Shown here: piece by piece, positions 15,364-61,575 of the stretch
Numbering within the stretch: the stretch's first letter is position 1
How the letters are laid out: each line of letters begins with the position of its first letter
Assembly (NCBI GenBank): GCA_963837465.1
Contig: CAWINB010000001.1
Coordinates: 629,646-693,645 of the forward strand
DNA from: Candidatus Doudnabacteria bacterium
GTDB taxonomy: Bacteria > Patescibacteriota > Doudnabacteria > UBA920
Direction of reading: 5' to 3'
DNA: 64,000 nucleotides
Translations under genes and position numbers: made by a program
The notes under the pieces: model-generated
The model's database searches: none
Told to the model about the DNA's origin: nothing
Seen by the model: only the letters and a program-made list of their open reading frames with translations

Positions 15364-16839
<1,476 letters not shown>

Positions 16840-16890
16840 TTAAAAATATTTAAATCAGTATAGTCTTTTTCTGGGGCGTTGTCTATCAGG

Positions 16891-18330
16891 AGTCTTATAC
16901 AATGGAACATGGCCCCTATCTTTGAGACAGCCTCTAAAGGAGGACGGTACCCCAATTGCTGAAACCGGAGGGTTGCCCGGAAGCTGTACAAAGAGCATAA
17001 GCCTGCCACACTGACTTGATGACAATCGATATGACAGACTTAAGCGTTACGAGCATAGCTCAAATCAAGGAATTTCTAAAGGTCAATACAGCAATTAATT
17101 TTACCTCAGTTTCCAGAAAGGAGAAATATGAATGGATTAACAACGTCTTAAACAAGTTTGGCTATGTCCGGCTTAAAGGCAAAAAAGACAAGGGGCAGAT
17201 TAAGGAATATATCCAACGGATGACCGGCATGTCGGGCAGACAGCTAAAACGACTGATTACCAACAAGAGAGGAAGTGGGTTAGTGGCCTTGTCCCCGAAT
17301 TGGGGCAAGAAAAACCGGTTTGTTACTGTTTATGGCCCGGCAGAAATACTATTGCTGGCTGAAACCGATAATCTGCACCAACGAATGAATGCCCATGCCA
17401 CCAAACAGATCCTAATGGCTGAATATGAAATATTCGGTGACGAACGGTTTAAAAGACTAAAAGATATTTCCGTTTCCCATATCTACAATCTGCGAGTTAA
17501 AAGAATTTACACCAGCCACTCCACCACCTTTACCATAACCGATCCAGTAAGCACCCCGATTGGTATTAGAAGAAGACCCGACAATATGGGCATTCCGGGC
17601 TATCTGCGGGTGGATACCGTGCATCAGGGCGACCGTAAGCTGGCTTTGGGCAAGTATGAGAAAGGTATTTACCACTTAAACCTGGTGGATGAAGTCACCC
17701 AATGGGAAATGGTCTTCTGTGTGGAAACGATTTCCGAGCTGCATTTAAAACCCATATTTGAACAGTTGCAGCAAATGTTTCCCTTTACAGTAATTAACTT
17801 CCACTCTGACAACGGTAGCGAGAACATTAATTACACGGTAGCTGATATTCTTAGAAGGTTAGTTATTAAACAGACAAAATCACGAAGCAGGCACTGCAAT
17901 GACAATGCCTTAGTGGAAAGCAAGAACGGCAGTGTCATCAGAAAGTATATGGGCTACACTCATATCCCGAAAACCTACGCGCAGGAGATTAACGAATTTT
18001 ACCAGAAGTTTTTTAACCCTTACCTGAACTTCCACAGACCCTGCGGCTTTGCCACCACCACGGTTGACCATAAGGGCAAGGAAAAGAAAAAATATGATAT
18101 TTACTTAACTCCCTATGCCAAACTGAAGACTCTGGATAATTGGACACGCTACCTTGCCCCAGGACGGACGGAAAAACAACTGGATGACATCAGCACCGGC
18201 CACAGCCATAACGGATGGGCAAAACTTATGCAGGAAGCAAAGTCAGCAGTATTTAAAAACATTAAACTTAAGGAACATCAAAAAATGGCCGCTGGCGGAT
18301 AGGGGCCATGTCTTGATTAGAAACTACTTC
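16891..18330 (+). mobile_element. IS element copy 1 (1440 bp) encoding a DDE/rve-type transposase
   Basis: Its ends were found by comparison with the inverted copy at 41746-43185. Identity starts at agtcttatacaatggaacatggcccctatc and ends at ...ggggccatgtcttgattagaaactacttc. Both termini share the imperfect inverted repeat acatggcccctatc. Confidence 0.8.
17016..18302 (+). CDS. DDE-type (integrase-core/rve) transposase of the IS
   Basis: 428 aa. N-terminal HTH region, HSDNGSE, and RHCNDNALVESKNGSVIRKY (the D..E catalytic region of rve-family transposases). Protein identical to 41774..43060. Confidence 0.8.
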   Translation: MMTIDMTDLSVTSIAQIKEFLKVNTAINFTSVSRKEKYEWINNVLNKFGYVRLKGKKDKGQIKEYIQRMTGMSGRQLKRLITNKRGSGLVALSPNWGKKNRFVTVYGPAEILLLAETDNLHQRMNAHATKQILMAEYEIFGDERFKRLKDISVSHIYNLRVKRIYTSHSTTFTITDPVSTPIGIRRRPDNMGIPGYLRVDTVHQGDRKLALGKYEKGIYHLNLVDEVTQWEMVFCVETISELHLKPIFEQLQQMFPFTVINFHSDNGSENINYTVADILRRLVIKQTKSRSRHCNDNALVESKNGSVIRKYMGYTHIPKTYAQEINEFYQKFFNPYLNFHRPCGFATTTVDHKGKEKKKYDIYLTPYAKLKTLDNWTRYLAPGRTEKQLDDISTGHSHNGWAKLMQEAKSAVFKNIKLKEHQKMAAGG

Positions 18331-18358
18331 AGGCCGCCACCTCAACTGGCAAAACCGT

Positions 18359-19063
18359 AGTGTCAAGGGTGACCCTTGACACTACTCTTCTTCAAAGACT
18401 AAATCGGCAAAAATTAAGTGCTCCGGTTTATAGTTTTTTAACAAAAAACTTTTATAATTTACAGACGTTAGCTTATTTGTATCCATAAATATTTGGGGAT
18501 TGGCCAAACCATTATTTTCTTGGCCTAAATAAACAGCCATACTGGAATATTTCCATTCAAAGGGTTGCAGGGGGTTCAAATGTATGTAAGCAATAAGCTG
18601 CGTTAAGTAACTGTCATTCAAGACATTTTTGCTTTTATAAATTCCTTGAAAAATATGCCCCGAATGGCCGTATTTTTTATTAAAATATGATGAATAAGAA
18701 GTACACAGCCTATGCAAAAATATTTTAAGCCCGTTGACTTGGTTTTGTTTAACTAAAAAATGAAAATGGTTTGGCATTAAGCAATAACTTAAAATCTCCA
18801 ATCCCATTGCAGGCAAAGGTTTCAAGCGAATACTGCCTTTGGCGCTGCGCTTTGGCAACGGCAACAAACCAAGCAGCAACTTAGCCCTGTATATAAAATT
18901 TAGGTAATCTTGTTCATCCAAAAATATAAGCGCTTTATTTGCTCCCCTATTATAAGCGTGGAAATAAGCGCCGACAAAATTTGGTTTATAATCCCTTCCA
19001 ATCATGGCTTAATTATAAAGGAATTTGACACCAAGTCAAGTGTCAAGGGTGACCCTTGACACT
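18359..19063 (-). mobile_element. IS200/IS605-like (RAYT-type) element with identical terminal hairpins
   Basis: A perfect 25 nt hairpin agtgtcaagggtgacccttgacact sits at 18359-18383 and again at 19039-19063, flanking a Y1 transposase gene. Confidence 0.75.
18382..19005 (-). CDS. Y1 (HUH) transposase, IS200/REP-associated tyrosine transposase family
   Basis: 207 aa. HUH motif CLMPNHFHFLV and catalytic-Tyr region LIAYIHLNP. Confidence 0.75.
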   Translation of the reverse strand: MIGRDYKPNFVGAYFHAYNRGANKALIFLDEQDYLNFIYRAKLLLGLLPLPKRSAKGSIRLKPLPAMGLEILSYCLMPNHFHFLVKQNQVNGLKIFLHRLCTSYSSYFNKKYGHSGHIFQGIYKSKNVLNDSYLTQLIAYIHLNPLQPFEWKYSSMAVYLGQENNGLANPQIFMDTNKLTSVNYKSFLLKNYKPEHLIFADLVFEEE

Positions 19064-20506
19064 TCTGACGACAATCGCGTTTCGGGCGGGGCCGGTGCCG
19101 ACCAGTAGGATGGGGGTTTTAAGACGTTTTTCCAAACGGGATAAAAAGTTTCGCGCGGCTTTGGGCAAGTTTGGCTCTTGATCAATGCCGCCGATATTTT
19201 GCGGCCACCCCGGCCACTGCTCAAAAACCGGCTTAACATCCGCCAGCTCCCACGGCGGCGGCATTTGTCCCGGCCTCAAAAGCTTGCCCTTAAGTTTATA
19301 GCCAACGACCACGGGGATTGTTTTTATTCCCGAAAGCATATCAAACCGCGTTAAAGCCAGCCACTTGGGGCCGTTTACTCGGATGGCGTAATGCAGCCAA
19401 GGAATGTCTAAAAAACCCAGGGACCGCCCGCGACCCGTAGTGGCTCCCCGCTCGTCCCCCAAGACCTGAAAGTATTGCGAAGCTTCCGCGTTTGAGGCTT
19501 GCCCTTTGTTGATTTTTAACAACCTTTGGGACAAAAAGTCCGCGCGTTTGTCTGTGTTGGCAATAAACAGCTCACCGTTATTTTTGGCAAATTCCATTAC
19601 CGCGCTTCTTTCCCACATTTCCGACGGCATGGGACCCGAGCCCACGCGCGTAGGCAAAATTTTGACTACCATTAAAGTGGCGCTGAATTTCCCCATGGGC
19701 AAGCCCGTTCCCAAAGCCGCGCCGGAAGCGGCGGAGTTACCGGCCGAGACAAAAGGATAAGTGCCCCAGTGGGAATCCAAACCCAGCGCCTGCGCGCCTT
19801 CAAACAGTATCCGTTTACCGGACCTGGCAGCCTGGTCCAAAAAATAAGCGGTGTCGGCTATTATCGGCTTAACCCGCGGGGCGGCCAAAAGCAACTGCCG
19901 CGAAACTTGTTTGGGCGGCGGAATTTTTTCCCCGGCGGCAAATGCCCGCAAAATCGGCAGCAGCATTTTATACAAAACTTCCAGGGATTCTTCCAGCAAC
20001 TTGGGTTCCCGCAAATAACCGACAACCGGCCCGAGCCGCAATTTATACAAAGCTTCCAAAGGCGCGATACCTTTATTGGTTGTGCCGATTTTTTTTGCGC
20101 CGCGCAACTCCTCTACGTAACTTTCCAAAAGGCCGTGGTAAGGCGTCCATACAGGCGACTGGTAATCTATATAAATCGGCGGCAGATTATTTTCCCCCAA
20201 AATCCGCCTTGAATGTTCAAGTTCGGCCAAAAACAATTCCAGGTTAAAAAATTCCCCCCTGCCGAGCACGCAAATTTTGCCCTGAGCCAGGCCGCAGGGA
20301 ATTAAATGACTGACCAATTTTTTCCCGTCCGGCGTAAACACCGTATGGCCGGCGTTGGCGCCGCCGGAAAAGCGCGCCGTCACATCGTAATGCGCCATTA
20401 TTAAATCTATAATTTTGCCTTTGCCCTCATCCCCCCAATTGGCCCCGACTACAATTAAATTCGGCGCGTCTTTAAAAATAGATTTTAGCTTAACGGCAGT
20501 TATCAT
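19043..20506 (-). CDS. purA: Adenylosuccinate synthetase, with its last 6 codons supplied by the IS200-type hairpin
   Basis: 487 aa. VVGANWGDEGKGK P-loop, GGANAGHTV, and GTTNKGIAP. The C-terminal ...SVKGHP* is encoded by the hairpin at 19043-19063. Confidence 0.85.
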   Translation of the reverse strand: MITAVKLKSIFKDAPNLIVVGANWGDEGKGKIIDLIMAHYDVTARFSGGANAGHTVFTPDGKKLVSHLIPCGLAQGKICVLGRGEFFNLELFLAELEHSRRILGENNLPPIYIDYQSPVWTPYHGLLESYVEELRGAKKIGTTNKGIAPLEALYKLRLGPVVGYLREPKLLEESLEVLYKMLLPILRAFAAGEKIPPPKQVSRQLLLAAPRVKPIIADTAYFLDQAARSGKRILFEGAQALGLDSHWGTYPFVSAGNSAASGAALGTGLPMGKFSATLMVVKILPTRVGSGPMPSEMWERSAVMEFAKNNGELFIANTDKRADFLSQRLLKINKGQASNAEASQYFQVLGDERGATTGRGRSLGFLDIPWLHYAIRVNGPKWLALTRFDMLSGIKTIPVVVGYKLKGKLLRPGQMPPPWELADVKPVFEQWPGWPQNIGGIDQEPNLPKAARNFLSRLEKRLKTPILLVGTGPARNAIVVRSVKGHP

Positions 20507-26151: not shown

Positions 26152-26942
26152 GAAAAAGGGGTCAGGAGCTGTTTTTAGGACGCCCTGGTTTTCGCAAAGA
26201 AGATTTCAAACCTAGATCGCTTGCGGTTTTGTGTACCCATTGCTCATTTCCTAAAGGACGATTTTTAATTATTGACCGTCTTATGTTTTCAACTTCTGTT
26301 TTGGACTGAACTGAATTGACCAACAATAAATAATCCTTACCAGGTGGTATCGGCCAAGAACTCAATAACTGCTTCTGTTCTTCATCTCCTTGTTCCCTAA
26401 TCCACAAGCTCCCCCACTGCCAATCTTGGGCTTTGTCCACTAACTTTGCCCTAAGGGGGTTCCTTTCCACATATCTGGTTAATTGCAAAAAATATTCATC
26501 AGACTCAACCGGGAAAGATTTATATCTGCCTTGATACAAATGGCCGCTGCCTACGGTATGGTGTGCCGCATGCCATCTCTGGGCATGTGTCATGGTCAAC
26601 CAGGCCATAGCCTTTGACAAGACACCATTTTGGAAAGGCTTTAAAATTAAATGCCAATGATTTGGCATAATACAAAAAGCCAAAAGCTCTACCGGAAACT
26701 TTTTCTTTGCTTCCGTTAGGACTTCTATAAAAGCTTGATAATCCTTTTCTCTACGAAAAATGGCCAGCCGACCATTGGCACGATTAATCGTGTGATAAAT
26801 AATGTCAGCAACGTCTACTCTGGGAGGCCTAGGCATGCCTTTATAGTTTTAATGGTTCCATTAAAACTATAAAGGCATGCTGATGAAAATTATTTAAAAA
26901 ATAATTAAAAACTTTATACATAATAGCTCCTGACCCCTTTTC
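26152..26942 (-). mobile_element. Second IS200/RAYT-type element with terminal inverted repeats and a 23 bp-stem internal hairpin
   Basis: aaaaggggtcaggagct at 26152-26168 pairs with agctcctgacccctttt at 26926-26942. A long hairpin gcatgcctttatagttttaatgg tt ccattaaaactataaaggcatgc lies at 26828-26877. Confidence 0.7.
26162..26836 (-). CDS. Y1 (HUH) transposase, IS200/RAYT family (second, divergent copy)
   Basis: 224 aa. HUH motif CIMPNHWHLIL and catalytic-Tyr region LTRYVERNP. Confidence 0.7.
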   Translation of the reverse strand: MPRPPRVDVADIIYHTINRANGRLAIFRREKDYQAFIEVLTEAKKKFPVELLAFCIMPNHWHLILKPFQNGVLSKAMAWLTMTHAQRWHAAHHTVGSGHLYQGRYKSFPVESDEYFLQLTRYVERNPLRAKLVDKAQDWQWGSLWIREQGDEEQKQLLSSWPIPPGKDYLLLVNSVQSKTEVENIRRSIIKNRPLGNEQWVHKTASDLGLKSSLRKPGRPKNSS

Positions 26943-38813: not shown

Positions 38814-38976
38814 AAAGCTACAGAACTACAAAAAAATAATCACACTACAGAAAACTACGGAATAACTGCAGTCCCTTTTGTAGGCATCTGTAGTGTTCCC
38901 ATTGCAGTTTTTTGTAGTCACAAACTGGTAAAAATTGTATCACGTCTGTCAAGAGAGGGCAAGGGGTATGGCAGAA

Positions 38977-39006
38977 CAATTGACGATTAACAATTAACAA
39001 TTGACT
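38977..39006. promoter_or_regulatory. Conserved 22-mer caattgacgattaacaattaac (followed by aattgac) upstream of uvrA, identical to the motif at 2669-2690
   Basis: Exact string match between two loci 36 kb apart. Both are 5' of minus-strand genes. Confidence 0.6.
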
Positions 39007-39827: not shown

Positions 39828-41678
39828 ATGGAAGTAAAAAATTCCAATCTTAAATACAAAATCCAAAATATTCCCAAACTTCCCGGCGTTTACCAGTTTT
39901 TAAATAAAGATGGCGGGGTTATTTATGTTGGGAAGGCCAAAAATTTACGGTCGCGGGTTGGGCAGTATTTTGGCAGCCACGACAGCCGGCCGCAGTTGCC
40001 TTATTTAATGCGCGAGGCGGCGGATATAAATTACACTGTGGTTAACAACGAACTGGAAAGTTTGTTTTTGGAAAACACGCTCATTAAGCAATACCTGCCC
40101 AAATACAACATTAGCCTGCGCGACGATAAAAACTATGCTTTTATTAAAATAAGTTATTCAACGCAGATTCCTCAGATTGGCTACGCTAGGAAGATTGATG
40201 GCAAGTCAAACGTAAAAGGCCAATTGTCAAATGTTACCAAATATTTTGGACCATATAGCTCGGCCCACAAAATTCGCGATACGCTCCACACTATAAGAAA
40301 AATCTTTCCCTATTGCGCCTCCGAAAAAATCGGCAGCCGCCCCTGCTTTTACTATTACCTGCACCGCTGCCCGGGTGTTTGTATTGGCAAAATTACCTTA
40401 GATGAATATAAACTACAATTGGAAAAAATAGTAAAGTTTTTGCAGGGCGATATGGACGGGGTAACAGGGGAAATTAAAAAAGAAATGCAAAGAGCGGCCA
40501 AAAACAAAAAGTACGAAACCGCCGCGCGCCTGCGCGACCAGTTAAGGGGCCTGGAAATTTTGCGCGAAAGGCAAAACGTGATACTGCCCAAAAAAGTGGA
40601 TTGGGACCTGGTGTCGCTGGCCACGCAAAGCGGCTACGCCTGTATTAACCTGTTTAAAATTAGGGGCGGCAAAATGTTTGACAAGGAAAATTTTGTTTAC
40701 GAAATAAAATATGAATCTTCGGACGTTTATGGACAGGAAATAATACAAAGGTTTTTGGAACAATACTACCTGGAAACTTCCAGCTCGCCCAAATGCGTTT
40801 ACATCCAGTTGCCCGCGCGGGACAGTGAATTAATCAGCCACATTATTTTTTCGCGCTTCGGCAAAAAATCGGATGTTATAAATCCCCAAAAAGGCAAACC
40901 AAGGGACTTGGTTAAACTTGGGCAGGCCAACGCCGGGGAATATCTAAAAAAATGGCTTAGCGACAAAGCCGGCAATTTGGACAAAATTAACAACGCGTTG
41001 TTAAAGCTAAAAGAAACTTTAAATCTGCCGCGTATTCCCAAACGGATTGAATGCTACGATATTTCCAACACGCAGGGCACAAACGCCGTGGGCAGTATGG
41101 TAGTTTTTATAGAGGGTCTTCCGGCTAAAAGCCAATACCGCAAATTTAAAATAAAAACTAAACAAACACCCGACGATTTTGCCATGATGAAGGAGATGCT
41201 GTCGCGGAGACTGCGGAGAATAAAGAATAAGGAATTAGGAATTATGGAAAAGACCGCTTGGCCGCTGCCCGATCTTATTGTAATAGACGGAGGCAAAGGC
41301 CAGTTGGGAGCAGTGTCTTCCGTAATTCAAAATTCAAAATTCAAAATTCCCGCAATAGGATTGGCTAAGCGCATTGAGGAAATTTTTCTGCCCGGCAAGC
41401 CTGAGCCAATTATCCTGCCGCGCGACAATCCTGGCCTGCAGCTCCTGCAAAGACTGCGCGATGAAGCCCACCGTTTTGGCATAACTTTCCACCGAAGCCT
41501 GCGCTCCAGGCAAGCCGTAAAATCGGCCCTGGACGATATTTCGGGCATCGGCCCCAAAACCAAAAAACTCCTGAAACAAAGATTCGGCACTGTCTTTGAA
41601 ATTAAAAAAGCCGATGCCGAAGAGCTGGCAAAAGTTGTGGGAAAAAAACTAGCGCGGACCATAAAACAGAATCTGTAA
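39828..41678 (+). CDS. uvrC: Excinuclease ABC subunit C
   Basis: 616 aa. N-terminal GIY-YIG (GVYQFLNKDGGVIYVGKAKNLRSRV), UvrBC-interaction region, RNase-H-like endonuclease domain, and C-terminal HhH (ISGIGPKTKKLLKQRFG). Confidence 0.9.
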   Translation: MEVKNSNLKYKIQNIPKLPGVYQFLNKDGGVIYVGKAKNLRSRVGQYFGSHDSRPQLPYLMREAADINYTVVNNELESLFLENTLIKQYLPKYNISLRDDKNYAFIKISYSTQIPQIGYARKIDGKSNVKGQLSNVTKYFGPYSSAHKIRDTLHTIRKIFPYCASEKIGSRPCFYYYLHRCPGVCIGKITLDEYKLQLEKIVKFLQGDMDGVTGEIKKEMQRAAKNKKYETAARLRDQLRGLEILRERQNVILPKKVDWDLVSLATQSGYACINLFKIRGGKMFDKENFVYEIKYESSDVYGQEIIQRFLEQYYLETSSSPKCVYIQLPARDSELISHIIFSRFGKKSDVINPQKGKPRDLVKLGQANAGEYLKKWLSDKAGNLDKINNALLKLKETLNLPRIPKRIECYDISNTQGTNAVGSMVVFIEGLPAKSQYRKFKIKTKQTPDDFAMMKEMLSRRLRRIKNKELGIMEKTAWPLPDLIVIDGGKGQLGAVSSVIQNSKFKIPAIGLAKRIEEIFLPGKPEPIILPRDNPGLQLLQRLRDEAHRFGITFHRSLRSRQAVKSALDDISGIGPKTKKLLKQRFGTVFEIKKADAEELAKVVGKKLARTIKQNL

Positions 41679-41745: not shown

Positions 41746-43185
41746 GAAGTAGTTTCTAATCAAGACATGGCCCCTATCCGCCAGCGGCCATTTTTTGATG
41801 TTCCTTAAGTTTAATGTTTTTAAATACTGCTGACTTTGCTTCCTGCATAAGTTTTGCCCATCCGTTATGGCTGTGGCCGGTGCTGATGTCATCCAGTTGT
41901 TTTTCCGTCCGTCCTGGGGCAAGGTAGCGTGTCCAATTATCCAGAGTCTTCAGTTTGGCATAGGGAGTTAAGTAAATATCATATTTTTTCTTTTCCTTGC
42001 CCTTATGGTCAACCGTGGTGGTGGCAAAGCCGCAGGGTCTGTGGAAGTTCAGGTAAGGGTTAAAAAACTTCTGGTAAAATTCGTTAATCTCCTGCGCGTA
42101 GGTTTTCGGGATATGAGTGTAGCCCATATACTTTCTGATGACACTGCCGTTCTTGCTTTCCACTAAGGCATTGTCATTGCAGTGCCTGCTTCGTGATTTT
42201 GTCTGTTTAATAACTAACCTTCTAAGAATATCAGCTACCGTGTAATTAATGTTCTCGCTACCGTTGTCAGAGTGGAAGTTAATTACTGTAAAGGGAAACA
42301 TTTGCTGCAACTGTTCAAATATGGGTTTTAAATGCAGCTCGGAAATCGTTTCCACACAGAAGACCATTTCCCATTGGGTGACTTCATCCACCAGGTTTAA
42401 GTGGTAAATACCTTTCTCATACTTGCCCAAAGCCAGCTTACGGTCGCCCTGATGCACGGTATCCACCCGCAGATAGCCCGGAATGCCCATATTGTCGGGT
42501 CTTCTTCTAATACCAATCGGGGTGCTTACTGGATCGGTTATGGTAAAGGTGGTGGAGTGGCTGGTGTAAATTCTTTTAACTCGCAGATTGTAGATATGGG
42601 AAACGGAAATATCTTTTAGTCTTTTAAACCGTTCGTCACCGAATATTTCATATTCAGCCATTAGGATCTGTTTGGTGGCATGGGCATTCATTCGTTGGTG
42701 CAGATTATCGGTTTCAGCCAGCAATAGTATTTCTGCCGGGCCATAAACAGTAACAAACCGGTTTTTCTTGCCCCAATTCGGGGACAAGGCCACTAACCCA
42801 CTTCCTCTCTTGTTGGTAATCAGTCGTTTTAGCTGTCTGCCCGACATGCCGGTCATCCGTTGGATATATTCCTTAATCTGCCCCTTGTCTTTTTTGCCTT
42901 TAAGCCGGACATAGCCAAACTTGTTTAAGACGTTGTTAATCCATTCATATTTCTCCTTTCTGGAAACTGAGGTAAAATTAATTGCTGTATTGACCTTTAG
43001 AAATTCCTTGATTTGAGCTATGCTCGTAACGCTTAAGTCTGTCATATCGATTGTCATCAAGTCAGTGTGGCAGGCTTATGCTCTTTGTACAGCTTCCGGG
43101 CAACCCTCCGGTTTCAGCAATTGGGGTACCGTCCTCCTTTAGAGGCTGTCTCAAAGATAGGGGCCATGTTCCATTGTATAAGACT
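41746..43185 (-). mobile_element. IS element copy 2 (1440 bp), inverted relative to copy 1
   Basis: Nucleotide-identical to 16891-18330 in reverse complement. The flanking sequence diverges immediately outside both ends. Confidence 0.8.
41774..43060 (-). CDS. DDE-type (rve) transposase, identical to 17016..18302
   Basis: The 428 aa protein is identical to the copy-1 transposase. Confidence 0.8.
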   Translation of the reverse strand: MMTIDMTDLSVTSIAQIKEFLKVNTAINFTSVSRKEKYEWINNVLNKFGYVRLKGKKDKGQIKEYIQRMTGMSGRQLKRLITNKRGSGLVALSPNWGKKNRFVTVYGPAEILLLAETDNLHQRMNAHATKQILMAEYEIFGDERFKRLKDISVSHIYNLRVKRIYTSHSTTFTITDPVSTPIGIRRRPDNMGIPGYLRVDTVHQGDRKLALGKYEKGIYHLNLVDEVTQWEMVFCVETISELHLKPIFEQLQQMFPFTVINFHSDNGSENINYTVADILRRLVIKQTKSRSRHCNDNALVESKNGSVIRKYMGYTHIPKTYAQEINEFYQKFFNPYLNFHRPCGFATTTVDHKGKEKKKYDIYLTPYAKLKTLDNWTRYLAPGRTEKQLDDISTGHSHNGWAKLMQEAKSAVFKNIKLKEHQKMAAGG

Positions 43186-43261
43186 CGAGATTGACACGCC
43201 GCCTGCTTTCCTTGTATAATGCACGAGCAAATTATTTATTTAATCGTTTTCCAATAATTTT

Positions 43262-45546: not shown

Positions 45547-45632
45547 GCCGAAGTGATGGAATGGCAGACATGCACGGTTCAGGGCCGTGTGACCGCAAGG
45601 TCATGAGGGTTCGACTCCCTCCTTCGGCACCA
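45547..45632 (+). tRNA. tRNA-Leu (anticodon CAG), type II with long variable arm
   Basis: Acceptor gccgaag/cttcggc; anticodon stem cacgg/ccgtg with loop ttCAGgg; variable arm tgaccgcaaggtcat; T-arm gaggg ttcgact ccctc; discriminator A and encoded CCA. Confidence 0.85.
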
Positions 45633-47127
45633 AGATATTACACAAGGGAATTTTTCCAACTTTTTCTAGGGCTGCCTTAAGGGCAGCCCATTGTGTTTGC
45701 GGGCTAAACTGCAACTGACGGTTTTTTAAAAACAGGTTCGAGCCGAAAATTTGTTGGGCAGCCGATTTTTTGGGGTGCAGTTCGGGCGAAAGCGTTATTT
45801 CGCCCAATTTTTCTGCGTCTTTGAGCCATTGCTTGTAGGGTTCGAGCCAAAAATTACTGCCTTGTTCAATTTTGGTCATTTGCTCCTCCAAAGATTTCTT
45901 TTGAGAGACAAGATTATTCTTGTCTGTACGATACTCTTCCTGTTCAATATCCTGATCCAGGTACATGTCTTTGAGTTTTTGGAGTCTCCTATCTATATCT
46001 GTTTTCTTTAACCCCAGATCTTGAACAAGGATCGTCGTGGTCTGGTTTGCTTCCTGGCTATCCTTTTCAGCCATGCTTAATAGCTCCTCAGCCCACTCCT
46101 TAGGCATGATAAAAGTTTTAAGGGTATTAGACAACTGACTGGCTAATTCCCCGTCTCGTATGAAAGGCTGCGAACAGACAGTACGCTTTTTAGTGCAGCG
46201 GTAATAGGTAAAGACCAGTCCGCTTTTCTTTATGTGGGTTTCGCCGGTAACATTGCGGCCGCACTCGCCGCAGCGCAAAAGTCCGGCTAAGGGCTTGCCC
46301 TCGGCTGGTCTCCTGATAGTTTTACCCCGCTGTTTTAAAACTTCTTGCACTTTATCAAAAAGCTGTTTGGAAATTAAAGACTCATGCTTACCCTGGAATA
46401 GTTCGCCGCCGTATCTGAACAGACCGCAATAAAAGGGATTGGAAAGGATATATTTGGCCTGGTCACGCTTAAATAATTTCCCGCCTTTACTGCCTCCCTT
46501 TTGAATTTGTTTGGTCATAATACCCCTTTCAAACAAAAATCCAGAGGTATTTTCAAGTGAACAAAGGCCTTGTGAATATCTCTCAAAAGCTTGTTTGATA
46601 ATTGGGCCTTTGTGTTGGTCAATAACTATAGATTTATTCCGTACATCATTTAAATAACCTAACGGAGCCAGCCCTGGATATTCTCCCCGCCTGGCTTTCT
46701 CCATAAGGCCACGTTTGGTGTTAACGCTTAAGTCCCTGATGTACTGGTTGGCTATGCCAAACTCCACGTTCATAAGCATGACGTTATCGGCAGAGCGGTA
46801 ACTTCTGTCATGGGTTTGGATATGCTGGATAGTGCCCTCTTGCAGTAGCCACTGGATTTGGGCGGCATCTACGGGATTACGGGCTAGCCTGTCCAGCTTC
46901 CAACAGATAATCCCGGTGGCTTCACCTTTCTGAATCCTGCTCGCCATGTCATTAAACACAGGGCGGCCAGGGCACTTAGCAGATTGCTTTTCCACGAATT
47001 CACAAACAACATTTAAGTTCTGCTCCTTGGCTAAGGAACGCAAAACGGCAAGTTGGTCTTCTATTGACCGAACTTGCTTATCTTCTACGTCAGTAGATTT
47101 ACGGACATACAGGAAATAATTTAGCAT
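45601..47127 (-). CDS. Large serine recombinase (resolvase/invertase N-domain plus recombinase domain plus zinc ribbon); its 3' end overlaps tRNA-Leu
   Basis: 508 aa. N-terminal YVRKSTDVEDKQVRSIEDQ contains the catalytic Ser. Also GIICWKLDRLARN, the recombinase domain, and the zinc ribbon CGECGRN...YYRC. The last 11 codons (...VPKEGVEPS*) are encoded by the tRNA-Leu 3' end. Confidence 0.85.
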   Translation of the reverse strand: MLNYFLYVRKSTDVEDKQVRSIEDQLAVLRSLAKEQNLNVVCEFVEKQSAKCPGRPVFNDMASRIQKGEATGIICWKLDRLARNPVDAAQIQWLLQEGTIQHIQTHDRSYRSADNVMLMNVEFGIANQYIRDLSVNTKRGLMEKARRGEYPGLAPLGYLNDVRNKSIVIDQHKGPIIKQAFERYSQGLCSLENTSGFLFERGIMTKQIQKGGSKGGKLFKRDQAKYILSNPFYCGLFRYGGELFQGKHESLISKQLFDKVQEVLKQRGKTIRRPAEGKPLAGLLRCGECGRNVTGETHIKKSGLVFTYYRCTKKRTVCSQPFIRDGELASQLSNTLKTFIMPKEWAEELLSMAEKDSQEANQTTTILVQDLGLKKTDIDRRLQKLKDMYLDQDIEQEEYRTDKNNLVSQKKSLEEQMTKIEQGSNFWLEPYKQWLKDAEKLGEITLSPELHPKKSAAQQIFGSNLFLKNRQLQFSPQTQWAALKAALEKVGKIPLCNILVPKEGVEPS

Positions 47128-47203
47128 AATCGTATAGATTAATAACTCTATATATAGTTATTATATAACATCTGTTATAATAAATGCAAATTCATACAAT
47201 TTT

Positions 47204-47410
47204 ATGATTGACATAGTAATTAAATTTGGCAAACGAGTTAAAGATATACGCCTGAAGAAACATTTATCCCAAGGTAAATTAGCAAAAATATTAGATGTTC
47301 ATCCCAGCTATATTAGCGGTATTGAACGTGGTTTGACGAATATGTCTTTAAAAAATATAGAGAAGATAGCAAAGTCTTTAAATGTTTCGGTAATCGATCT
47401 TCTAAAATAG
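47204..47410 (+). CDS. XRE-family helix-turn-helix transcriptional regulator
   Basis: 68 aa. LSQGKLAKILDVHPSYISGIERG is the canonical HTH_XRE motif. Confidence 0.7.
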   Translation: MIDIVIKFGKRVKDIRLKKHLSQGKLAKILDVHPSYISGIERGLTNMSLKNIEKIAKSLNVSVIDLLK

Positions 47411-47413
47411 TTT

Positions 47414-47980
47414 ATGATAAAGGCAATTATTTTTGATATTACTGGCGTATTATTCCCCGTTCAACCGTGGATAGGAGAGCGTCCATCACATGAAGAATTA
47501 TTAAAAATAAAACAAATTGCTACTGGTATTTATGATAAAGACAAAATGTCAAAAGAATACCTTAAAGAAAAAATCTTCCAAGCTAGCCGCCCACACAATG
47601 AATTAGAGGCTATATATAAAAGCTTAACTTTAATTGATGAGGATGTTTTCAATCTTATAAAAAAACTTTCGGAAAAATACTCTCTTTATTCCATAGCCAA
47701 TGAGGCGGAAAAATGGACAGATATTAGAAAAGATTTATATGGGTTTCAAAAGTACTTTAAAAAACTTTACATTTCAGTTGAAGTCGGAATGAGAAAACCC
47801 GAGGAAAGTATTTACAAATTACTTCTCAGCGAAACAGGACTGCTACCAGAAGAGTGTTTATTTATAGATGATAAAGCAATAAATGTTGAAGCGGCTCAAA
47901 AGCTTGGCTTTCAAGGATTTATATATAAAAATTTTAATAGCCTAAAGGAATATCTTATCAAAAACAATTTACTTGTTTAA
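47414..47980 (+). CDS. HAD-superfamily hydrolase
   Basis: 188 aa. N-terminal IIFDITGVL (the DxD/T motif variant) and C-terminal CLFIDDKAINVEAAQKLG (HAD motif IV). Confidence 0.65.
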   Translation: MIKAIIFDITGVLFPVQPWIGERPSHEELLKIKQIATGIYDKDKMSKEYLKEKIFQASRPHNELEAIYKSLTLIDEDVFNLIKKLSEKYSLYSIANEAEKWTDIRKDLYGFQKYFKKLYISVEVGMRKPEESIYKLLLSETGLLPEECLFIDDKAINVEAAQKLGFQGFIYKNFNSLKEYLIKNNLLV

Positions 47981-48052
47981 GTGTTTTATTGTCAATTGCG
48001 TTTGCGTTCTGCGCCCTGCGTCTCCCCAAAAAATCTTCCCTATCTCCGAACC

Positions 48053-48165
48053 TGTTTTTAAAAAACCGTCAGTTGCAGTTTAGCCCGCAAACACAATGGG
48101 CTGCCCTTAAGGCAGCCCTAGAAAAAGTTGGAAAAATTCCCTTGTGTAATATCTTGGTGAAGCTT
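48053..48165 (+). repeat. Inverted duplicate of the serine recombinase 3' terminal 110 bp (copy B)
   Basis: The reverse complement of 45628-45740 is identical, up to the shared cacca junction. It is annotated in the ORF track as the 71 aa ORF 47989..48204 ending ...KIPLCNILVKLYPDSRSHFIKNS. Confidence 0.8.
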
Positions 48166-48531
48166 TACCCTGACTCTCGATCTCATTTTATCAAAAACAG
48201 CTAACCTTGGCCACCCTAAACCTCCTTGCCCAAGGCTGTTTTTTGATTTAAAATTGAGGTGCCAACTGTATGAACGTCTGTACGAACACCATTCATACAC
48301 CAGAAGCACTAAAATCCTTAATTCCACTACCTCTCACTACTCCAAATATCCCTGACTACTATATATCACCAGATAATCTAACTGAACGACAAAATAGATA
48401 ATAATACTAAAAACAATAACTAAAATACTAATACTTAAAATACTTAAATACTAACTAAATACAAATATACTAAACTAACTTAAAACAAACCAAAAAAACA
48501 AAGTGAACAGAGAGGGGAAAATGGGGGGGGT
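48166..48531. repeat. Left arm of a long inverted repeat (about 370 bp) bounding the 48.2-61.2 kb block
   Basis: The reverse complement of 48166-48531 matches 60790-61174 almost base for base, apart from a few indels including a G8 versus C6 homopolymer. Confidence 0.85.
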
Positions 48532-60789: not shown

Positions 60790-61174
60790 TTCCACCCCCC
60801 ATTTTCCCCTCTCTGTTTCCTTTGTTTTTTTGGTTTGTTTTAAGTTAGTTTAGTATATTATATTTAGTTAGTATTTAAGTATTTTTTAAGTATAGTATTT
60901 TAGTTATTATTGTTTTTAGTATTATTATCTATTTTGTCGTTCAGTTAGATTATCTGGTGATATATAGTAGTCAGGGATATTTGGAGTAGTGAGAGGTAGT
61001 GGAATTAAGGATTTTAGTGCTTCTGGTGTATGAATGGTGTTCGTACAGACGTTCATACAGTTGGCACCTCAATTTTAAATCAAAAAACAGCCTTGGGCAA
61101 GGAGGTTTAGGGTGGCCAAGGTTAGCTGTTTTTGATAAAATGAGATCGAGAGTCAGGGTAAAGCTTCACCAAGA
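60790..61174. repeat. Right arm of the long inverted repeat (reverse complement of 48053-48531 region)
   Basis: Near-identical to the reverse complement of 48148-48531. It continues as a diverged recombinase 3' fragment. Confidence 0.85.
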
Positions 61175-61445
61175 TTAGACCAAGTTTAGTTTCAGGAATT
61201 TTTTTATGGGCTGCCGCAACGGCAGCCCATTGTGTTTGCGGCACGGAAACGATTTTTTGATTTTGCAGCCAGAGGTTCAACCCGAAAATTTTTTTGGCAG
61301 CAGATTTTTTGGCCTGCAAGTCGAGCGAAAGCGTTATTTCGCCCAATTTTTCTGCGTCTTTGATGAAGTTTTTCATAGGTTCAACCCAAATTTTTCCCTC
61401 ATGTTCCAGACGGCTGATTTGTTCTGTGAGGGTCTTCTTTTCCAA
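61122..61445 (-). pseudogene. Diverged C-terminal fragment (about 107 aa) of a large serine recombinase (copy C)
   Basis: ...WVEPMKNFIKDAEKLGEITLSLDLQAKKSAAKKIFGLNLWLQNQKIVSVPQTQWAAVAAAHKKIPETKLGLILVKLYPDSRSHFIKNS aligns to the last roughly 100 aa of the 45601..47127 recombinase. It carries the same tail as copy B. Confidence 0.7.
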
Positions 61446-61457
61446 AGTCGTTTAGGG

Positions 61458-61575
61458 CTTTTGGTGTATGAATGGTGTTCGTACAGACGTTCATACTGTT
61501 GATACCCCAATTTTAAATCAAAAAACAGCCCTCTGGCAAGGGTGGCCAAGGCTAAGAATTGTTGATAAAATAGGT
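61458..61575. repeat. Third, partial and diverged (about 85% identity) copy of the inner part of the inverted-repeat unit
   Basis: ggtgtatgaatggtgttcgtacagacgttcatactgttgataccccaattttaaatcaaaaaacagcc... compared with 61020-61140. Confidence 0.6.

Follow-up and report, generated by a model that had tools for sequence, protein, structure and literature searches.

RAYTs are known as single-copy genes flanked by REP sequences (PMC5581495; PMC6006769), and such REPtrons are reported not to move as whole units (PMC6006769). The E. coli-type REPtron, in which TnpA-REP (RayT/YafM) is associated with REP/BIME sequences (RAYT groups of Bertels et al., 2017; class 2 of Quentin et al., 2018), is the closest described system to the locus examined here. 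Its canonical repeat carries a GT[AG]G foot, and atypical repeats without this foot have been reported for subclasses 2.6 and 3 (PMC6006769). Proteins of IS200 subclass 1.1, of ~150 aa, are characterized by the motifs H-[VI]-H and Y-x3-Q (PMC6006769), and TIRYT elements by terminal inverted repeats with the motif GGGGWSAS (PMC3733652). REP termini often supply stop codons to flanking ORFs, and REPs also occur inside genes (Di Nocera et al., 2013; PMC3733652). For the Patescibacteria (candidate phyla radiation, CPR), our literature searches on RAYTs and REP-associated tyrosine transposases found no description of such genes; one preprint mentions a RAYT KO near archaeal rbcL.

The window, i.e., the whole 64-kb stretch of Candidatus Doudnabacteria DNA that was analysed and to which the coordinates refer unless another stretch is named, contains a 705-bp unit that we interpret as a REPtron: a single-copy gene for a RAYT, a TnpA-REP-like Y1 HUH ssDNA endonuclease, between two cognate palindromes. 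We put the probability of this reading at roughly 0.7. The original prediction that identical 25-nt hairpins flank a Y1 transposase gene was borne out, as the window contains exactly two copies of the 25-mer AGTGTCAAGGGTGACCCTTGACACT (chance expectation none) with a 207-aa Y1 ORF between them. The two copies are direct repeats, with G as the plus-strand central base in both, and, being near-perfect palindromes, are also 96% complementary to each other; either copy is predicted to fold on both strands into a hairpin with an 11-13 bp stem and a 3-nt loop. In the downstream palindrome (18359-18383; downstream relative to the RAYT gene) the stem reaches a length of 13 bp (18357-18385), and in the upstream one (19039-19063) one extra base pair is possible (19038/19064). 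The RAYT gene itself is intact and lies on the minus strand (18382-19005), with its TAG stop codon (18382-18384) overlapping the left palindrome by two bases. A small alternative hairpin, TTGACAC-TTGACTTG-GTGTCAA (19025-19046, minus strand), can be formed by the 3' arm of the upstream palindrome and a repeated half-site in the spacer. The core of the palindrome family is TGTCAAGG-N5-CCTTGACA, and the extended palindrome TAGTGTCAAGGGTSACCCTTGACACTA has stop codons in two of three frames per strand (TAG at the foot, TGA in the 3' arm). The unit had been described as an "IS200/RAYT-type" element; the Y1 gene with its cognate flanking hairpins stands, but RAYT/REP fits better than IS200 proper because of the HFH and Y-x3-N motifs, the identical perfect palindromes at both ends, the single copy and the existence of solo repeats.

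The 207-aa protein matches Pfam Y1_Tnp (PF01797) with 33.5 bits (cutoff 23) and the NCBIfam equivalog REP_Tyr_transpos (NF047646) with 36.1 bits, which is below the cutoff of 80; the second RAYT of the window scores 70.7 bits with the latter model (cutoff 80). Across 21 aligned family members, with identities as low as 26%, H16, N19, R20, a C-L-M-P-N-H-x-H block, G116, Q120, D131 and Y140-I-H-x-N-P are invariant, and this includes the HUH motif (H80-F-H82) and the catalytic Tyr140, which in the window protein is part of YIHLNP. A sequence search against PDB chains yielded nothing meaningful and the family profile retrieved weak matches only (ISDra2, E=0.02; 4ER8, E=0.5), so that a comparison of folds was needed. 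The best match in the PDB of the AlphaFold (AF2) model (pLDDT 87, pTM 0.86) was 4ER8, the E. coli TnpA-REP bound to a REP hairpin (E=1.5e-6), followed by the ISDra2, IS608, and IS200 transposases, with 2XM3 and 2A6M among the matches. The HUH motif, the single catalytic Tyr and the RRM-like HUH fold of the Y1 HUH superfamily are all found in this protein. The motifs and length of IS200 subclass 1.1 are not: the protein has H-F-H and Y140-I-H-L-N instead of H-[VI]-H and Y-x3-Q, and is ~60 aa longer.

To place the repeat in a wider context, we scanned one genome per species with the pattern TGTCAAGGRTNRYCCTTGACA, the source genome of the window not being among these representatives. The scan returned 58 stretches, nearly all from Patescibacteria (Doudnabacteria, Vogelbacteria, Zambryskibacteria, Paceibacterota, Saccharimonadales, and Magasanikiibacteriota). 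Palindrome pairs that are 660-740 bp apart enclose RAYT homologues (30-77% identity), and the remaining copies are solo, e.g., eight in Doudnabacteria MAG_CO250, five in MFD03726, and eight in Paceibacterota SMAG_U8081. Overall, RAYT homologues (30-79% identity) bordered by this palindrome family were seen in many Patescibacteria genomes, at no fewer than 17 loci, and a cognate palindrome is present on both sides in the window as well as in nine close and eight distant RAYT loci. All homologues of 71-79% identity that were recovered with flanking DNA have the same palindrome family at both ends. In the close loci the upstream palindrome ends 28-30 nt before the ATG, and in eight of the nine close relatives the RAYT stop codon abuts or overlaps the downstream palindrome. 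The central loop has the same orientation at both ends in some RAYT loci and is inverted in others. Exact-core palindromes number about 5-10 per roughly 1-Mb genome, whereas multiple near-identical whole elements per genome were not seen: each reference genome with the palindrome has one RAYT locus, a count of lower confidence since the MAGs are incomplete, and the window holds a single RAYT of this repeat family, its second RAYT being only 27% identical with different ends. It had been expected that REP-like copies of the hairpin would occur elsewhere in the genome. Solo copies are indeed found in relatives, but the 64-kb window has none, as a relaxed search (up to three mismatches) did not find a third copy of the palindrome core.

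For about half of all palindrome copies, an ORF of at least 100 aa ends no more than 40 nt upstream, and many solo copies are found 3-35 nt after stop codons. Variants of the loop and outer stem are specific for a genome and are shared by the RAYT-flanking and solo copies of that genome. The canonical GT[AG]G foot is missing from the repeat; its fixed core is TGTCAAGG/CCTTGACA, with covariation at the outer positions in the 81 distinct copies aligned. Among positions not fixed by the search pattern, pair 8-30 is GC in 26, AU in 24, and CG in 10 copies, and the innermost stem pair is GC in 59 and AU in 16; the covariation score of this alignment was reached by none of 500 shuffles. Compensatory stem changes are also evident in individual RAYT loci; L006, for example, has GGA/TCC and L068 has AGG/CCT in place of GGG/CCC. 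A hairpin is, however, not the only possible source of the covariation, as a symmetric protein-binding site on double-stranded DNA would produce the same pattern.

Some further features of the repeat family were observed. Exact matches to the palindrome pattern also occur in three stretches of two bins outside the Patescibacteria (L021, a Woesearchaeota MAG; L026 and L059, a Prevotellaceae MAG), which may be due to chance, mis-binning or transfer. Carriage of the palindrome by phages was considered and rejected, since no match was found in viral contigs. Directly outside the stem, approximately one-fifth of the palindromes are accompanied by one or two additional half-arms (TTGAC or GTCAA), repeated at intervals of ~9-10 nt (window 19025-19046; L004 3452; L066 780 and 1455; L069 2951; L012 1187; L014/L015/L023/L027; and others). 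These could be remnants of target or cleavage sites, slippage products or additional binding sites. In L042 a 19-nt tandem partial duplication of the repeat is present.

The upstream palindrome coincides with the end of purA (adenylosuccinate synthetase; 19043-20506, minus strand; Pfam Adenylsucc_synt, 359 bits), which encodes 487 aa with a conserved core that ends at Arg481 (...IVVR). No stop codon precedes the palindrome; the last six codons (Ser-Val-Lys-Gly-His-Pro) and the TGA lie wholly inside the repeat (19063..19043), confirming the claim that the PurA C-terminus ...RSVKGHP is hairpin-encoded. Orthologous PurA proteins with the same ending had been named beforehand as the observation that would speak against this claim, and none of 119 PurA orthologues ends in SVKGHP. 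These orthologues share a conserved core up to ...GTGPxRxxIVVR, which is followed by 0-15 variable, unrelated residues. The view that a mobile-element insertion remodelled the 3' end of an essential gene is, therefore, overstated: the repeat does encode the tail and the stop, but only a non-conserved tail is touched.

Comparable gene ends occur elsewhere in this repeat family. A MAG_CO250 gene with an MGMT-type DNA-binding domain (Pfam PF01035, 74 bits; L048 1903-2250) ends with ...SVKGDP in a solo palindrome, using the same palindrome frame and the same TGA as the PurA of the window, and a RAYT homologue of Patescibacteria H41-bin003 (L025 6331-7075) reads into its own downstream palindrome and ends with ...TVKDRP at the internal TGA. 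Three other long ORFs ending in palindromes (L042, 165 aa; L025, 142 aa; L053, 107 aa) look spurious, being Arg-rich or, for L053, of another odd low-complexity composition, and were not counted as overlaps; the 165-aa ORF of L042, the only one of the three that was scanned, had no Pfam match. Such overlaps are tolerated because the palindrome closes two of three frames on both strands. A repeat that donates the last codons and the stop codon of a gene is thus real but known in kind. As in the gene-entering REPs (Di Nocera et al., 2013; PMC3733652) and the Rickettsia palindromic elements (RPEs), the repeat gives C-terminal codons and/or a stop without disabling the gene. The window differs from the published REP stop donors, where the stop is the TAG of the GTAG foot, in that purA reads through six codons of the repeat before it stops at a TGA in the 3' arm, and in that the donor is the RAYT-flanking master copy itself.

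The history of this site can be followed in relatives. The gene order purA-REP-RAYT-REP-guaB, with guaB (IMP dehydrogenase; 15364-16824, minus strand) as the conserved downstream neighbour, is common to the window, L001 (Doudnabacteria MAG_CO250), and L067, the latter containing the RAYT closest to that of the window among those found (79% identity). PurA and GuaB of L001 and L067 are only 67-76% identical to those of the window, and across the three genomes with an occupied site the flanking proteins are 67-82% identical, which does not agree with a recent insertion. The purA genes of L001 and L067 have their own stop codon (after VVRV and VVR, respectively) 5-6 nt before the palindrome, and it is these 8-11 nt that are absent in the window. 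MFD03726 (L070) has an empty site, where purA is directly followed by guaB at a distance of 61 nt, and the tail of its PurA (...VRTGQKL) overlaps a promoter-like site for guaB (TGGACA-17-TATACT) that has been retained downstream of the unit in L001 and L067. The RAYT unit of MFD03726 sits elsewhere, near PaaX, L20, and IF3 (L031). Because the empty site keeps the ...VRTGQKL tail, the unit would seem to have entered right after VVR, cutting off the native tail. Accordingly, the claim that the insertion created the hairpin-encoded end holds only in part: the native tail may have been replaced upon entry, but the read-through into the repeat came later and is lineage-specific, as purA of L001 and L067 stops before the palindrome. 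The fusion of purA to the repeat was a later event, probably a small deletion, and it arose after the insertion and not through it.

Judged by host-gene identity, the flanking genes of L070 are closer to those of L001 and L067 than the genes of the window are. Identities among the RAYTs are star-like (71-85%) and do not clearly track the host genes, and among these homologues the palindrome-gene-palindrome unit keeps its internal geometry constant in five or more different genomic contexts. These comparisons point to a unit that is old and has moved as a whole. Either it would have been gained twice between purA and guaB, or it would have been lost or relocated in L070; in both cases the whole unit has moved. 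Simple vertical inheritance could not be established, as the RAYT identities are star-like and the pattern of occupied and empty sites does not match the similarity of the host genes. Where guaB directly follows purA in a genome, the sequence that encodes the PurA tail (TGQKL, TGQML, TGKKV, AGQKV) doubles in several cases as the guaB -35 box (TGGACA; e.g., L070 5060-5136), and the promoter of the neighbouring gene may have a part in shaping this variable tail.

The upstream repeat also bears on the expression of the RAYT gene. A promoter-like site on the minus strand (19012-19039) consists of TTGACT (19039..19034), a 16-nt spacer, and TATAAT (19017..19012), with the ATG at 19005 following 6 nt later. 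With 11 out of 12 matches it is the best such site of the region; its -35 element TTGACT is the duplicated half-arm of the palindrome and its TATAAT is perfect. The 3' arm of the palindrome contains TTGACA, and in 14 of 17 RAYT loci the TTGACA of the upstream palindrome is located 16-17 nt from a TAnnnT box, which in turn precedes the RAYT start codon by 6-7 nt (by 14 nt in one locus); this geometry is kept even at 30-40% RAYT identity. Since there is no room for a Shine-Dalgarno sequence before the ATG, a leaderless mRNA is suggested, and the RAYT is probably transcribed in this form from a promoter inside its own repeat. Autoregulation, via binding of the RAYT to the repeat or via extrusion of the repeat as a hairpin, could be envisaged from this arrangement. 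The idea that solo palindromes serve as portable promoters was rejected, as a TAnnnT box at 16-18 nt was found beside them on 8 out of 93 sides, which equals background.

A more far-reaching reading would be a Patescibacteria-wide REP/RAYT system in which the repeat core is a sigma-70 -35 hexamer (TTGACA on both strands), the leaderless RAYT mRNA starts from its own repeat and is switched off by extrusion or RAYT binding, any two copies are usable as ends and the unit moves whole, and stop codons in two frames permit landing on gene ends in compact genomes. We consider this extension possible but doubtful.

Two other readings of the unit as a whole need to be weighed against a REPtron. According to the original prediction it would be an autonomous insertion sequence of the IS200/IS605 type, a peel-and-paste unit with the two hairpins as its left and right ends, that landed at the 3' end of purA. 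The occurrence of the unit with constant geometry in five or more contexts among homologues of 71-85% identity fits such an element, as does the empty purA-guaB site of L070, a genome that by host-gene identity is nested between RAYT-bearing ones, and the fold of the protein also matches the TnpA structures of ISDra2 and IS608. An insertion sequence would not, however, be expected to show one copy per genome where this is visible, accompanied by several solo palindromes, and the landing cannot have been recent with the site occupied in three genomes whose flanking proteins are 67-82% identical. Furthermore, the ends are identical perfect palindromes and not distinct imperfect left and right hairpins, tnpB is absent, and HFH with Y-x3-N replaces the H-[VI]-H and Y-x3-Q of IS200 subclass 1.1 (PMC6006769). 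We regard this reading as unlikely. Somewhat less likely still is that the palindromes are mainly host regulatory, acting as a stabilizer or terminator of the mRNA 3' end after purA and the RAYT gene or as an operator or -35 element, with a Y1 protein that no longer moves DNA. Many copies are located just 3' of stop codons, the upstream copy is positioned as a -35 element would be relative to a -10 box, the core is kept across very divergent RAYTs, and RAYTs are regarded as domesticated (PMC5581495). On the other hand, the genome-specific variants, which solo copies share with RAYT-flanking ones, speak for a master from which copies are still being made, the catalytic Tyr and the HUH motif are invariant, and the solo copies lack a -10 box at promoter spacing beyond the background of 8 out of 93 sides. 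Intrinsic termination was rejected as the main role: a terminator scan flags the left palindrome, but in relatives the stems are not consistently followed by a T-tract.

The hairpin-encoded tail of PurA might, in principle, be an assembly or sequencing error, e.g., an indel beside the palindrome, with purA really stopping before the repeat. This exact PurA is known from one contig only, palindromes are error-prone, and purA of the relatives stops 5-6 nt before the palindrome. Yet the difference from these relatives amounts to 8-11 nt and not to one base, an unrelated genome's gene uses the same palindrome frame for its end, and both 25-mers of the window are identical. We regard an error as highly improbable.

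Other mobile elements occur in the window. An rve-type insertion sequence of ~1451 bp (16880-18330, plus strand), which is not part of the RAYT unit, separates this unit from guaB; it is a later insertion and lies 28 nt away from the downstream palindrome. Its 428-aa ORF has a weak rve/IS3/IS481 match, and a near-identical inverted copy is present at 41746-43196. The terminal TGTCTA of the first copy reads TAGACA on the minus strand, 17 nt from the conserved TATACT of guaB (16885..16857), and the end of the insertion sequence appears to replace the -35 box of guaB; the second copy ends with TGTCAA, which is TTGACA on the other strand. A second, divergent RAYT element with different inverted repeats and a 23-bp-stem hairpin had also been predicted, and all three components were found. 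The element (26154-26941) contains a Y1 gene of 224 aa (26162-26836, minus strand) between 17-nt terminal inverted repeats, AAAAGGGGTCAGGAGCT (26154-26170) and AGCTCCTGACCCCTTTT (26925-26941), one of which overlaps the TGA stop codon. As in TIRYT elements, the terminal repeats contain GGGGTCAG, which matches GGGGWSAS, and a repeat overlaps the stop codon. These terminal repeats are conserved in L073, a MAG_CO250 homologue (71% identical) in a different context. Unlike TIRYT elements, it possesses the additional 23-bp-stem hairpin (26833-26880), which overlaps the ATG of the second RAYT; since this hairpin is absent from the MAG_CO250 homologue, it must be a later addition.

The window further contains a repeat cluster at 45628-48528 and 60795-61571, with 317-nt arms of 93% identity (48151-48467 and 60859-61175), 113-nt arms of 100% identity (45628-45740 and 48047-48159), and 80-nt and 169-nt direct repeats, which points to a further duplicated or mobile region. 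Arrays of TTAACGA/TTAACAA-type heptamers (period 7; listed copies 14 nt apart) are present in both orientations at 2139-2240, 2657-2731, 38973-39006, and 40205-40235.

Compared to the E. coli REPtron, the unit shares the Y1 HUH fold, with 4ER8 as best structural match, the single-copy gene between cognate palindromes, the dispersal in relatives of solo palindromes that are mostly extragenic and gene-3'-proximal, and repeat variants that are genome-specific and co-vary with the gene. It differs in its short near-perfect palindrome (11-13 bp stem, 3-nt loop) without GT[AG]G foot, its low copy number, its host phylum (Patescibacteria, CPR), its score below the cutoff of the curated RAYT model, and the relocation of the whole unit between related genomes. 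Movement as a whole is unusual for a REPtron and keeps the IS-like reading alive. With IS200/IS605 elements (IS608, ISDra2, IS200) it shares the Y1 HUH transposase, the same-strand hairpins at both ends, the lack of long terminal inverted repeats, and an apparent mobility over evolutionary time; it is set apart from them by the longer protein and its motifs, the identical perfect palindromes, the single copy, the missing tnpB, and, in relatives, the dispersed solo copies of its ends. The unit is, therefore, not of the IS200 subclass by motif, copy number or end structure. On the sequence comparisons presented here it is best filed with REP/RAYT despite two canonical features that it lacks (the GT[AG]G foot and a score above the threshold of the curated model), dispersal being seen in relatives only.

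By analogy with E. coli TnpA-REP and the TnpA of IS608 and ISDra2, the enzyme of this REPtron would recognize the palindrome as a hairpin on single-stranded DNA and cut and rejoin the DNA next to it. In this way, solo palindromes would reach other, mostly gene-3'-proximal sites, and now and then the palindrome-gene-palindrome unit would be moved in its entirety. In an ancestor, the unit would have entered between purA and guaB, just after the conserved VVR codon of purA. In the lineage of the window, purA would later have lost its own stop, most simply by a deletion of 8-11 nt, and would since then have run six codons into the palindrome to the TGA in its 3' arm.

New here are the lineage (CPR), the type of repeat, the series of empty, occupied, and fused sites, and the geometry of a promoter embedded in the repeat. 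The results extend REP/RAYT biology to the candidate phyla radiation, with its ~1 Mb genomes and minimal intergenic space. They provide a natural series for a gene end supplied by a repeat, from an empty site via an occupied site where purA has its own stop to an occupied site where purA is fused to the repeat, and the embedding of the RAYT promoter in its own repeat is a testable idea. For annotation, the odd C-terminus of this PurA is explained by the repeat, and the gene annotated as a "transposase" is probably a resident RAYT rather than an active insertion sequence.
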